Positions 32,833-36,207 of a stretch of DNA of 48,134 bases are shown one piece after another. The position numbers were made by a program, and so were the translations under genes. Below the pieces are notes generated by a model that was not told the DNA's origin, searched no databases, and saw only the letters and a list, made by a program, of their open reading frames with translations. Position 1 is the stretch's first letter. Each line of letters opens with the position of its first letter. Source of the DNA: a virus (taxonomy: Duplodnaviria > Heunggongvirae > Uroviricota > Caudoviricetes); the IMG/VR virus record IMGVR_UViG_2651869782_000034. The stretch is one strand, 5' to 3'.

Positions 32833-32928
32833 TAATGCAAGCATTTTGTTTTGGTTTTATGCTTGCTTGTATGTGTGTACAGTGCATATAATGCAAGCAT
32901 ACATCACAATAAAGGTGCTTGCATTATG
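32833..32928. promoter_or_regulatory. Four copies of near-palindromic motif ATGCAAGCAT / ATGCTTGCAT in a divergent promoter region
   Basis: taATGCAAGCATt (32833-44), ATGCTTGC (32859-66), taATGCAAGCATa (32889-900), GCTTGCATta (32916-26) overlapping ATG 32926. Confidence 0.55.
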
Positions 32929-33971: not shown

Positions 33972-34508
33972 TCAAACAACCCACCAGTTTGCCTGATTGG
34001 ATGCCAGCCTTGCAGTTTTTATGGAATTAATTATGCCATGCTCAAGAGCCTTGTTAGCATCCAAAATGGTCGAGTCTGCTATCAGGGATGCCCACCTAAT
34101 ATGGGTTCCGATGTCGATATTGAACGTCTCAACGAAGCGATCAAGATCGTTATCGAGGCATTTCCCGTACTCTCTCAATCTGGCATGGTCGGCGGCTGGG
34201 GAGGCAAAGCACCATAATAGAGGATGTAACAGGAATCTTGATAATGGGTTTGCGAAACGTTCTGAGCCAGCCAGGAAAACGATATTAGCTATGGATTCAA
34301 CATTGCTTATGTTGTGAGTTCTAACGGTAACAGGGAGTGACTTAAGAAAGTTATACGCAGTAAAGCCAGCGGCAGTTTCCCCTCCCTGACTTGATATATG
34401 GATATTTAATTCAGTTGCGCCTTGAGATAATGCGGTGAGACAGTGGTTCTGAAGTTGCCCAACAGTGGCAGTGTTAACGGGGCATAAGAAATGAATTGTG
34501 TGCAGCAT
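33972..34508 (-). CDS. Clp-fold serine protease (ClpP-like, short form)
   Basis: HISSQGG vs ClpP INSPGG; ES-IANIVFLAG aligns to the ClpP active-site Ser; LLHPL aligns to MIHQP His; ATG overlaps mnt stop (TAATG). Confidence 0.7.
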   Translation of the reverse strand: MLHTIHFLCPVNTATVGQLQNHCLTALSQGATELNIHISSQGGETAAGFTAYNFLKSLPVTVRTHNISNVESIANIVFLAGSERFANPLSRFLLHPLLWCFASPAADHARLREYGKCLDNDLDRFVETFNIDIGTHIRWASLIADSTILDANKALEHGIINSIKTARLASNQANWWVV

Positions 34509-34756
34509 TATTTTTCATCCTTAGCATACATGGTCTTTAGCGTCTCAAGCAGCGCCTCTTTGAATTTGTCAGCTTCTTGCTGAGCAAATGACTCAACTGA
34601 CTTTGGCGACCTATCTTCATCAATCGCGGCTTGCAAAATCATGACGATCTCGGAGTTAACAGAGCGACCATTTTTTGATGCTCTGACAGCAAGAGCCTCG
34701 CGTAAAGATTCAGGGATTCTTACCGTAGTTGGAGAAATTGACACACCCTTTGCCAT
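34508..34756 (-). CDS. mnt: Mnt-like ribbon-helix-helix repressor
   Basis: RIPESLREALAVRASKNGRSVNSEIVMILQAAI and C-terminal coiled coil parallel P22 Mnt; divergent from arc. Confidence 0.8.
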   Translation of the reverse strand: MAKGVSISPTTVRIPESLREALAVRASKNGRSVNSEIVMILQAAIDEDRSPKSVESFAQQEADKFKEALLETLKTMYAKDEK

Positions 34757-34779
34757 ATCACACCTTTGGTATTCAATTT

Positions 34780-34834
34780 GATAGCAAAGTGTATGCAAAA
34801 AAATTTTGACTAGATATACTCACTTTGCTATCTT
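34780..34834. promoter_or_regulatory. immI control region: inverted 12-bp repeats GATAGCAAAGTG / CACTTTGCTATC flanking candidate Pant
   Basis: Repeats at 34780-34791 and 34821-34832; -35 TTGACT 34806-11 and -10 TATCTT 34829-34. Confidence 0.55.
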
Positions 34835-34870
34835 TTGTATTCGAAAAGAGTTGTTTGTGTGGAGGGTAAC

Positions 34871-35023
34871 ATGGAGAAAGAAATAAGTAAGATTTTGGTA
34901 AGGATGCCGCAGTCGTTAAAGGATGCTATAGGTAGCAGGGCAAAGGAAGAGTGCAGGTCGTTTAACTCAGAGGTTATCAAGCGCCTGATAGACAGCTTGA
35001 AGAGAGAGGGGGTAATGGTATGA
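34871..35023 (+). CDS. arc: Arc-like ribbon-helix-helix repressor
   Basis: MEKEISKILVRMPQSLKDAIGSRAKEECRSFNSEVIKRLIDSLKREG parallels P22 Arc. Confidence 0.75.
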   Translation: MEKEISKILVRMPQSLKDAIGSRAKEECRSFNSEVIKRLIDSLKREGVMV

Positions 35024-35223
35024 GTAAAGAATGTTGTTTCTGCGGCATTAGCGAATCAGACGCTGATCAAACATACATTTACTCTAAAGAAACAGGTCGG
35101 ATGCTGTGTAGTGACTGCGTGTTGGACATCATAAGATACAAGCATCTTGGATGTTCTGCCAGCATTAGCAATATAGGTGAAGTATATGAAGGGAAAGATA
35201 TAACTGATAGAGCAGAAAGTTGA
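35020..35223 (+). CDS. Small zinc-ribbon-like protein between arc and ant
   Basis: Two Cys pairs (CCFCG ... CSDC); ATG overlaps arc stop. Confidence 0.45.
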   Translation: MSKECCFCGISESDADQTYIYSKETGRMLCSDCVLDIIRYKHLGCSASISNIGEVYEGKDITDRAES

Positions 35224-35285
35224 AGCCCCAACTGCGGTAACAGTCAGGGCTTCGGTATCAACAAATCGTCTTAGGAAATATTGAC

Positions 35286-36164
35286 ATGAAAAGTATAGCA
35301 AAGGCACAAAACGATTTCACCATCTTCAAATTCGGCGACAGTGAAATCCGCGTCATCAACAAGTGCGGTGAGCCGTGGTTTGTAGCTAAAGATGTTTGTG
35401 ATGCTTTAGCTTTGACTAACTCACGCAAGGCGCTTACTGCACTTGATGACGATGAAAAGGGAGTAACTTTAAGTTACACCCTTGGTGGTGAGCAGAATCT
35501 AAGCATTGTGAGCGAATCAGGTATGTATACATTGGTTCTGCGCTGCCGCGATGCAGTCAATAAAGGTTCAGTCCCGCACAAATTCCGCAAGTGGGTAACA
35601 GCAGAAGTTCTGCCTTCAATTCGCAAACATGGCGAGTATGTTAAAGGAAAGAAAACCACTGTTGAGGAAAGAACACCGCTACGCGATGCAGTAAACATGC
35701 TGGTAGGAAAGAAAGGACTTCGCTATGACGATGCATACAATATGGTTCATCAGCGTTTTGGTATTGACAGCATTGATGAACTTTCAATTGAACAAATCCC
35801 GCAAGCTGTAGAGTACATCCACAGGGTAGTGCTTGAAGGTGAGTTCATCGGCAAACAAGAGAAGAAAACCAACGAGCTTTCTGCAAAAGAAGCAAACAGC
35901 CTTGTATGGTTATGGGATTATGCCAACCGCTCACAGGCATTATTCCGCGAACTGTATCCGGCGCTAAAACAAATTCAATCGAACTATTCCGGCAGATGTC
36001 ATGACTGCGGTTATGAGTTCTCCCGTATTATCGATATGGCGAGAGATGTTTTAATCAACCATACACGAGATGTTGATATTAATGAGCCAGACGGACCAAC
36101 GAATCTTTCCGCATGGATGAGACTTAAGAATAAAGAATTACCTCCTTCAGTACATAACTACTGA
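35286..36164 (+). CDS. ant: Antirepressor Ant (Bro-N domain)
   Basis: Bro-N motif [30 protein letters not shown]; follows arc as in P22 immI. Confidence 0.85.
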
Positions 36165-36182
36165 CAGATAACCAACGCAACG

Positions 36183-36207
36183 ACCCAGCTTCGGCTGGGT
36201 TTTTTTA
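36183..36207 (+). terminator. Rho-independent terminator after ant
   Basis: ACCCAGC-ttcg-GCTGGGT followed by TTTTTTT. Confidence 0.65.

Follow-up and report, generated by a model that had tools for sequence, protein, structure and literature searches.

A P22-type immI module with paired candidate Mnt operators and an exchangeable arc-sar slot encoding a putative free-standing ClpX-type zinc-binding domain

The 48,134-nt stretch of viral DNA analyzed here (the window; IMG/VR virus record IMGVR_UViG_2651869782_000034, Caudoviricetes) contains a short immunity region that raises two questions. A first-pass annotation, made from the sequence alone, had noticed (i) a pair of inverted 12-bp repeats around a promoter in an immI-like control region and (ii) a 67-aa open reading frame with two cysteine pairs, hereafter ORF67, lying between arc and ant. 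Which protein reads the repeats, and what does the additional gene encode and do in this operon? The window is a P22-like Escherichia coli prophage with a P22-type secondary-immunity (immI) module. The explanation that best accounts for the whole, and to which somewhat better than an even chance is given, is that the repeat arms serve as Mnt operators and that ORF67 is a ClpX-type domain that may act as a decoy. Both repressor-operator recognition (Arc, Mnt) and antisense control (sar) have P22 immI as a textbook example. The module itself and its parts were already known and the phrog_7150 family, matched by ORF67, is already catalogued; the features proposed here, i.e., a bounded cassette slot between arc and sar, putative operators dispersed over two or three sites, and predicted stand-alone mimics of a ClpX domain, were not found described in searchable papers.

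The identity of the module was established from the Pfam matches for Mnt, Arc and Ant, from the sar RNA and from the comparison with P22. Its genes are the following.

34508 to 34756, minus strand: mnt-like ribbon-helix-helix repressor gene, 82 aa (Pfam Arc 9.5e-11, FitA-like_RHH 2e-8)
34871 to 35023, plus strand: arc-like ribbon-helix-helix repressor gene, 50 aa (Pfam Arc 4.4e-12)
35218 to 35284, minus strand: sar antisense RNA gene (Rfam RF00262, 74.5 bits, E 6e-15, full length)
35286 to 36164, plus strand: ant antirepressor gene, 292 aa (Pfam Bro-N 7e-20, P22_AR_C 3e-28)

The module is complete (mnt, divergent control region, arc, sar and ant) and is placed, as in P22, between the DNA-injection genes and the P22-type tailspike gene. 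The products of the two divergent repressor genes both carry the Pfam Arc domain, and the mnt product can be aligned with P22 Mnt over its full length, C-terminal part included, at 34% identity. The sar gene, which was missing from the first-pass annotation, matches model positions 1 to 68 of 68 (gathering score 43), covers the ribosome binding site of ant and ends 2 nt before the ant ATG, while its terminator hairpin constitutes the conserved right boundary of the slot occupied by the extra gene. Gene order, orientation, protein families, full-length sar RNA and the position of the ant promoter (Pant) are shared with P22, together with a homologous arc-ant junction in which AGTTGAAGCCCCAACTGCGGTAACAGTCAGGGCTTCGG is common to both. 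The control region, in contrast, differs from that of P22, where the sequence between -35 and -10 contains a single 21-bp Arc operator and a single 17-bp Mnt palindrome lies at +1; the window has two identical 12-bp arms 41 bp apart and no palindrome at +1. The mnt-arc intergenic region also measures 114 bp instead of 90 bp, and a ClpP-like gene follows mnt. According to this comparison, the layout of the control region in the window is a variant, not a copy, of the P22 design.

The elements of this control region were located as follows.

34759 to 34774: weaker third element copy CACACCTTTGGTATTC, between the mnt start codon and the left arm (repeat search)
34780 to 34791: left arm of the 12-bp inverted repeat, GATAGCAAAGTG, candidate Mnt-type operator upstream of the -35 of Pant
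34806 to 34834, plus strand: candidate Pant, with -35 TTGACT (34806 to 34811), a 17-nt spacer, TG extension (34826 to 34827) and -10 TATCTT (34829 to 34834) (promoter scan)
34821 to 34832: right arm, CACTTTGCTATC, candidate operator overlapping the TG extension and the -10 of Pant
34832 to 34842: related element copy CTTTTGTATTC (repeat search)

Direct reading bore out the exact repeat that the first-pass annotation had described: the two arms are perfect reverse complements separated by 29 nt. Such a repeat is unlikely to arise by chance, as a perfect inverted repeat of at least 12 bp was obtained in only 1 of 5,000 dinucleotide-preserving shuffles of the 114-bp intergenic region, and the whole 48-kb window holds only two perfect inverted repeats of 12 bp or longer (spacer up to 60 nt). 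The repeat search also returned weaker additional copies of the element at 34743 to 34756 and, with uncertain significance, at 34759 to 34774 and at 34832 to 34842. The proposed -35 and -10 hexamers were likewise reported by the consensus scan, with a 17-nt spacer and a TG extension, at the same place as Pant of P22, and they form a strong candidate promoter directed rightward. That the repeats flank this promoter holds for the left arm, which lies 14 nt upstream of the -35, but not for the right arm, which reaches from the spacer across the TG extension and four bases into the -10. With the first base of the -35 (34806) as the axis, the arms mirror each other at -26 to -15 and +15 to +26, i.e., 41 bp from centre to centre.

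Then, the mnt-arc control region was taken from 126 related loci (designated by L numbers) and compared. In close relatives, position 5 of the arms is polymorphic (G or T), so that 11 of 12 positions match in most relatives. Across five diverged module types, GCAAAAAAATTTTGACT of Pant is conserved, and the arm geometry is unchanged in the modules of E. coli O157, L048, L049 and L050 to L053. In the diverged modules, both arm positions hold 13-bp elements with a CAC-N-GTG core.

O157/O55 modules: arms TATCACaGTGTAT and TAGTCACaGTGATAC, 13-bp CAC-N-GTG elements
L048: arms TATCACaGTGTAA and TATCACgATGATA, 13-bp CAC-N-GTG elements
L049 to L053: arms CTACACaGTGTAG and AAACACgGTGTAG, with a third site, TATCACgGTGTAG, downstream of the -10
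L156: three CTACATgATGTAG-like sites

The same core is present in the P22 Mnt operator GGTCCACgGTGGACC and in its Salmonella variant TGAACCACcGTGGTTCA. Moreover, the two arms co-vary, the type-specific bases being the same in both: TAGCAA in the window and, in the O157, L048, L049 and L050 to L053 modules, TATCAC, TATCAC/TATCAT and CTACAC. The O157 and L048 modules, with Mnt beta-strands PYSV and PYGV, have common arms, yet their Arc strands are unrelated. Reciprocally, the arms of the window (Mnt strand PTTV) differ from those of O157, yet the Arc strands of the two are nearly the same (SKILVRMP and SRILVRMP). Because the type of arm follows the DNA-reading beta-strand of Mnt and not that of Arc, the arms are most likely Mnt-type operators. 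The earlier view of the repeats as components of Mnt and Arc operators is thereby retained for Mnt, by comparison of conserved positions and co-varying arms, and disfavored for Arc, and the layout is unlike that of P22. Besides, an Arc operator was looked for as an element kept between the window and O157, which have the same Arc strand, and different in L048; only a short GATATA in the promoter spacer answered to this description. The spacer between -35 and -10 is identical to that of P22 at 11 of 17 positions in a manual alignment, without the dyad symmetry of the P22 sequence.

Several observations weigh against this reading. The assignment to Mnt and not to Arc depends on two informative comparisons only, the window arms are without the internal CAC/GTG symmetry (they read CAA...GTG), and a spacing of 41 bp between centres is unlike the single 17-bp and 21-bp operators of P22. 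Neither sequence reading nor the repeat search found a 17-bp palindrome at +1 or anywhere downstream of the -10, unlike in P22 and in Salmonella locus L007. In addition, the right arm is similar to the right half of the Arc operator of P22 (CACTCTACTAT versus CACTTTGCTAT), and binding of Arc at this arm is conceivable. The remaining difficulty concerns the mnt promoter (Pmnt). The minus strand of the left arm reads TGcTATCAA (34786 to 34778) at the position that mirrors the extended -10 of Pant, and this could be an extended -10 for Pmnt, with a -10 (TATCAA) that is weak and was not reported by the promoter scan. The position of Pmnt could not be fixed by sequence, TGcTATCAA and TGaGTATAT (34822 to 34814) both being weak candidates that the scan did not report.

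This mirrored arrangement leads to another explanation of the inverted repeat, in which it would be no operator and would reflect either the extended -10 elements of back-to-back promoters (TGcTATCTT rightward, TGcTATCAA leftward) or a hairpin in RNA or DNA. TGCTATC is indeed present in each arm, and the arms are symmetric at the -10 positions of a mirrored promoter pair. However, promoter function makes use of only about 9 of the 12 arm bases, and in the diverged modules the arm positions hold palindromic CAC-N-GTG elements, which are poor -10 hexamers; these modules also have a third copy beyond +1, a place at which a -10 would not be expected. Formation of an RNA hairpin is improbable, as both arms are upstream of the predicted Pant start (about 34841) and are never both included in one predicted transcript. 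Such an origin of the repeat is considered very improbable, and the assignment of the arms as Mnt-type operators is preferred. If it is correct, natural immI modules make use of two or three dispersed 13-bp sites, and not of one Mnt operator and one Arc operator, and several co-varying pairs of repressor strand and operator would provide ready material for studies of ribbon-helix-helix specificity. In one group of modules (L049 to L053, L075, L108 and L156), the Mnt-like and Arc-like DNA-reading strands are nearly identical (e.g., ISPLGIRIP and IAPLGIRIP) and the control region contains three copies of one palindrome, which suggests that both repressors read the same operator there, a simpler design than that of P22.

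Regarding the second question, the extra gene and its translation signal were placed as follows.

35006 to 35012, plus strand: Shine-Dalgarno sequence GAGGGGG, 7 nt before the ORF67 ATG (read from the sequence; kept in relatives)
35020 to 35223, plus strand: ORF67, 67 aa, in the arc-sar cassette slot, with C5/C8/C30/C33, a folded core (residues 1 to 42) and a variable tail (residues 43 to 67)

As previously noticed, the frame starts at the arc stop codon, with an ATGA overlap, and contains two cysteine pairs (C5/C8 and C30/C33). Its Shine-Dalgarno sequence is encoded by the last arc codons (KREG), and the 3′ end of arc, GAAGAGAGAGGGGGT, is conserved in all cassette-bearing relatives. The stop codon, TGA at 35221 to 35223, is formed by the first bases of the conserved sar flank TGAAGCCCCAACTGC and is overlapped by the 3′ end of sar. 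Salmonella P22-like prophages (about 35% identity) and further prophages of E. coli carry relatives in the same slot, 25 to 38% identical overall, and in all of these C, F, C, G, C and C are invariant. The strong Shine-Dalgarno sequence and ATGA overlap, the presence of the identical protein elsewhere and the invariant residues of the same-slot relatives indicate that ORF67 is a genuine gene.

The alternative of a chance or decaying frame, left untranslated in spacer DNA, may draw on three facts: the RefSeq Prokaryotic Genome Annotation Pipeline (PGAP) did not call ORF67 in the three genomes examined, the frame is shifted in O157:H7, and the ratio of nonsynonymous to synonymous substitution rates (Ka/Ks) is about 1. 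It is nevertheless hardly credible, because six subfamilies (20 to 38% identity) each keep an open frame of 59 to 74 codons from the arc stop to the sar TGA, with the four cysteines, the phenylalanine and the glycine invariant, whereas an unconstrained 66-codon frame would stay open with an estimated probability of about 0.04; the strong Shine-Dalgarno sequence is conserved, and the AlphaFold2 (AF2) model of the protein shows a confident zinc-knuckle fold.

Of 5,426 complete E. coli genomes, 373 carry the ORF67 DNA, and the exact protein is encoded on at least 1,000 contigs, where it is named "hypothetical protein" throughout; it was not found in the collection of species-representative genomes. 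The protein matches phrog_7150 from end to end (3e-50) and phrog_5259 (7e-5), two PHROGs families that have no assigned function, domain or context. The word-indexed search returned near-identical proteins only. The exhaustive phmmer search returned one true distant relative; its other matches, to eukaryotic Ig-repeat proteins with many matched stretches, were rejected as spurious. In the open-access literature, no paper was found on a gene between arc and ant, nor on stand-alone ClpX-type zinc fingers in phages. No well-studied relative was found to carry an identical small gene of known role: the copy in phage CUS-3 is unannotated, and elsewhere the protein is a "hypothetical protein" or a member of phrog_7150.

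CUS-3 (CP000711) is among the closest known cases. The region designated "bsq2 boundary sequence" between its mnt and ant genes contains, after an arc-like frame, an ORF67 that is 100% identical to that of the window, and its sar and ant are 92.5% identical at the DNA level. CUS-3 departs from the window in that it contains two mnt genes, its control region is different and the ClpP-like gene is missing. In its record (locus L001, about 2350 to 2704), arc and ORF67 are both unannotated and lie under a misc_feature "bsq2". CUS-3 was said to apparently lack arc (Villafane et al., 2008; PMC2629481), whereas an intact Arc-like frame (...EECRSFSAEVIKRVLDSLKREGVMV) is present in it.

The position of ORF67 was then considered in a survey of the slot, in which four phages were aligned, followed by 53 and by 120 loci, the latter obtained from an unbiased scan for the sar hairpin. 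The whole interval bounded by the arc stop and the sar TGA can be exchanged; about ten different contents were encountered, and six of these are zinc-finger types. In all cassettes, the start lies 4 nt before the arc end (ATGA or GTGA) and this same sar TGA is the stop.

Zinc fingers: ORF67 and five other types of 59, 60, 62, 68 and 74 aa
Unrelated small proteins: 57 aa; 89 aa with a membrane helix; 73 aa; 79 aa
Other contents: deletion derivatives and empty slots

The slot is empty in P22, in modules where arc ends on the sar TGA, and in about 46 of the 120 contigs. The statement that ant directly follows arc in P22 is thus accurate, only 6 nt separating the P22 arc stop from the conserved TGA of the sar flank, at the place where the window has a 200-nt gene. 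Deletion and inactivation are also encountered in the slot: in L092 and L133, an internal deletion in the 57-aa cassette leaves a 12-codon frame, VIRLDAAKKSKQ, and in L059 the 59-aa ClpX-type cassette is represented by an allele interrupted by a stop at codon 13. The 73-aa (MRFIEVDEIGY...) and 79-aa (MSFITLTKTKF...) cassettes (L095, L112, L120, L135, L148 and L176) give weak, sub-threshold matches to FlbD (PF06289; E 0.025 and 1.7e-4), and they may be related to each other.

The term moron designates insertions in phage operons that are expressed independently, and ORF67 had been suggested as a possible one. It is indeed present in some related phages and absent from others. In the strict sense, however, the proposal does not fit: the gene is coupled to arc, and the promoter and terminator scan found no promoter-like or terminator-like site on the plus strand between 34835 and 35223. 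Unlike morons, the cassette overlaps the arc stop, borrows its own stop from the sar flank and is exchanged within fixed boundaries. In P22-like phages, the "ant moron" region was described as being in rapid genetic flux, with ten types in sixteen genomes (Villafane et al., 2008; PMC2629481), and the arc-sar slot adds a finer level to the variability of this same region. Were this view of the slot to hold, one would have to regard the classic arc-ant junction as a cassette site with precise boundaries, filled by interchangeable small genes, whose mosaicism is unannotated in RefSeq and in the CUS-3 record.

As for the nature of the protein, the term "zinc ribbon" used in the first-pass annotation was appropriate and can be sharpened. 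Although no single line of evidence is decisive, profile comparison, synteny and predicted fold together support the view that ORF67 is a diverged, free-standing ClpX-type zinc-binding domain (ZBD) with a variable 25-residue tail. The 59-aa protein found in the same slot (L033 and L041 to L044) is a confident zf-C4_ClpX domain (PF06689; 4e-11, 43 bits for a cut-off of 27) and is 45% identical to residues 1 to 61 of E. coli ClpX. When a profile was built from ORF67 and its four closest subfamilies, the 59-aa protein being left out, it matched the 59-aa cassette with a hhalign probability of 90.7% (E 1.2e-6) and E. coli ClpX residues 1 to 61 with P 8e-4. Its best match among 177,635 PDB sequences was ClpX itself (6vfs_E, residues 5 to 42, zinc-binding domain; E 0.035). 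Both ORF67 and the 59-aa protein match phrog_5259, and the UniRef name of a Salmonella relative is "ClpX-type ZB domain-containing protein". Residues C5, F7, C8, G9, C30 and C33 align with C, F, C, G, C and C of ClpX and are invariant across all cassette zinc fingers.

The predicted structure is compatible with these matches. The AF2 model obtained from a 9-sequence alignment had predicted local distance difference test (pLDDT) values of 82 to 87 over residues 1 to 40, and its two best folds among 350,542 PDB chains were entries of the E. coli ClpX ZBD, 2ds5_A and, in complex with the SspB tail, 2ds8_B, with probabilities of 0.93 and 0.85. These two matches had a target TM-score of 0.62 and a root-mean-square deviation of 2.2 to 2.3 Å over 42 columns, with non-significant E-values of 0.18 to 0.27. 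A first AF2 model (4-sequence alignment, pLDDT 55), for which Foldseek gave only generic RING and treble-clef matches, was discarded, and a profile of 4 sequences gave no ClpX match in the PDB. With the ClpX ZBD (PF06689; PDB 2DS5, 2DS8), ORF67 shares the C-x-F-C-G...C-x-x-C ligand pattern and a helix starting from the second CxxC. Unlike it, ORF67 is a free-standing protein of 67 aa without an AAA+ module, has a loop between the cysteine pairs that is 3 residues longer, remains below the Pfam threshold and ends with an unrelated, variable 25-residue tail.

Other results go against a ClpX-type identity. ORF67 alone gave no PF06689 match in Pfam at E-values up to 10, and the sister cassettes scored below the cut-off (E 0.0015 to 0.75), only the 59-aa cassette passing it. 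The PDB and Foldseek E-values (0.035 and 0.18) are not significant alone, and zinc treble-clef domains also mediate other contacts with proteins and nucleic acids. Aside from the slot, the best viral folds found for the ORF67 model in BFVD are 57- to 65-aa proteins of unrelated phages (non-significant E 0.03 to 0.12), one of which, from Pseudomonas phage PP9W2, is named "Clp protease", and the 59-aa cassette matches five different PHROG families. Stand-alone ClpX-type zinc fingers may be widespread in phages.

In the explanation favored for the whole module, the Mnt-like repressor bound at the right arm would keep arc, ORF67 and ant off in the lysogen and, bound at the left arm, would autoregulate mnt, Arc probably acting at or beside the same control region. 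In P22, Pant is derepressed early after infection or on loss of Mnt. When Pant fires, ORF67 would be made in step with Arc, through its Shine-Dalgarno sequence and the ATGA overlap, and together with Ant. The free protein would then compete for the adaptors or substrates that dock at the ClpX N-domain, or pair with the ClpX N-domain itself, its variable C-terminal tail setting the specificity. As a result, degradation of a phage or host protein by ClpXP would be transiently altered during Ant production.

The decoy step itself is put forward tentatively, as possible and not as probable. In ClpX, SspB, RssB, trigger factor, lambda O and MuA all dock at the ZBD, by way of a hydrophobic patch of which F16 is part (PMC7804408). 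A free copy of the domain could compete for docking partners since the equivalent of F16 is invariant in the cassette proteins; in ORF67 it is F7, which is clearly conserved, whereas the equivalent of I46 depends on the alignment. It is counted against this step that the evidence gathered contained no specific link between ORF67 and ClpX activity. Equally tentative is a broader proposal, according to which arc-coupled mimics of the ClpX domain would, in P22-like and some lambdoid prophages, block delivery to ClpXP that depends on adaptors or on the N-domain once the ant operon is turned on, and would thereby stabilize a phage or host protein biasing the decision for lysis or lysogeny or for anti-immunity. 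Their hypervariable tails would then reflect an arms race, the slot would be a site devoted to the exchange of cassettes, and the homology of the arc 3′ end and of the sar hairpin would let small effectors be swapped without disturbing immI. If the mimic truly interferes with ClpXP docking, this would be a simple and genetically tractable phage strategy against a central host protease, and possibly a tool for dissecting N-domain-dependent substrate selection. If interference with ClpXP is false, ORF67 is one more small, dispensable prophage accessory gene.

The genetic context of ORF67 points to a different possibility, in which ClpX is not involved and the zinc finger is a dedicated partner of Ant or Arc that stabilizes, inhibits or times Ant; modulation of Ant had also been suggested in the first-pass annotation. 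ORF67 is translationally coupled to arc and directly upstream of ant in one operon, zinc fingers dominate the slot (six of about ten types), and in E. coli an identical ORF67 travels with near-identical sar and ant genes though mnt, arc and the operators have diverged (O157, CUS-3). However, the same Arc and closely similar Ant proteins are also found with unrelated cassettes (57 aa, 89-aa membrane protein, 73 aa, 79 aa) or with none, which means that Ant does not need ORF67, and the Salmonella relatives adjoin a different N-terminal domain of Ant, P22_AR_N instead of Bro-N. Such a partnership is therefore regarded as rather unlikely, and a ClpX-directed role is retained ahead of it.

The evolutionary behavior of the cassette bears on both roles. 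Between two Salmonella alleles, few substitutions were available and gave a Ka/Ks of about 1.2 for the full length; the zinc core taken separately had about 0.6 and the tail about 3, compared with 0.17 for arc in the same pair. Purifying selection was thus not demonstrated by Ka/Ks, which speaks against strong constraint, and this pattern fits a dispensable, fast-evolving accessory gene. In the O55:H7/O157:H7 lineage, ORF67 is frameshifted within codons 6 to 8. Because of this frameshift in O157:H7, of the stop codon in the 59-aa allele and of the slot being empty in P22 and in about 46 of 120 contigs, the cassette is not needed for immI function. All of this detracts from the favored explanation; the case for a function of ORF67 comes from the intact frames and zinc ligands preserved repeatedly across six subfamilies.

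These same data are compatible with ORF67 being accessory cargo unrelated to immI and to ClpX, e.g., a gene for anti-defence, host takeover or exclusion placed in a permissive early slot. Unrelated small genes with identical boundaries occupy the slot, and a Ka/Ks near or above 1, a hypervariable tail, frequent loss or inactivation, and a patchy spread at the strain level (373 of 5,426 E. coli genomes, none of the species-representative genomes) are typical of conflict genes. Against this, ClpX-type zinc fingers recur in the slot, one of them 45% identical to the N-terminus of host ClpX, suggesting a shared ClpX-related activity; no defence annotation was obtained for ORF67, PADLOC not having been searched. 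Cargo of this kind is judged unlikely, and the ClpX-type decoy remains the preferred explanation.

The module of E. coli O157:H7 86-24 and O55:H7 (L005 and L006, 2488 to 4146) is found whole between the lambdoid tail genes L and K (C40 peptidase), and beside nleL in O157. In the O157 strain, arc is cut to 36 codons, counted from the ATG homologous to the arc start of the window, by a 3-bp deletion that creates a stop. This insertion and these lesions indicate that the immI module moves between P22-like and lambda-like prophages and decays in the latter.

The remaining features of the module are its outer parts.

33972 to 34508, minus strand: ClpP-like serine protease gene, 178 aa (Pfam CLP_protease 2e-11; best PDB relative 9uxt_A "Clp protease", E 1.6e-35)
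35292 to 35320, minus strand: candidate Psar within the first ant codons, GTGAAA, 17 nt, TATACT, with TG (promoter scan; the position fits the sar 5′ end at 35284)
36182 to 36201: terminator 3′ of ant (terminator scan)

The ATG of the ClpP-like gene shares one base with the mnt stop codon (TAATG), on account of which the two genes are probably co-transcribed, and expression of the ClpP-like gene alongside mnt in the lysogen is likewise probable. With canonical ClpP, the 178-aa protein gives no better than about 1e-7, far behind 9uxt_A (1.6e-35). This gene adjoins mnt in E. coli and Salmonella modules whatever the content of the slot, with and without a zinc-finger cassette. A pairing of ORF67 and the ClpP-like protein as an obligate phage ClpX/ClpP-like pair was rejected, each being found without the other. 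In phage phiv205-1, the ClpP-like gene is annotated as "head maturation protease", which is implausible at this location.

Elsewhere in the window, a TAATGCAAGCAT-like element is present in four copies between 32833 and 32927, two forward (32833 and 32889) and two inverted (about 32859 and 32916). The pair at 32888 and 32916 is the only other perfect 12-bp inverted repeat of the window. These copies are placed immediately upstream of the ATG (32926), which they also overlap, of a gene for a 330-aa P63C-domain protein (phrog_2384, in which no function is assigned), and the array looks like an operator array of another regulator.

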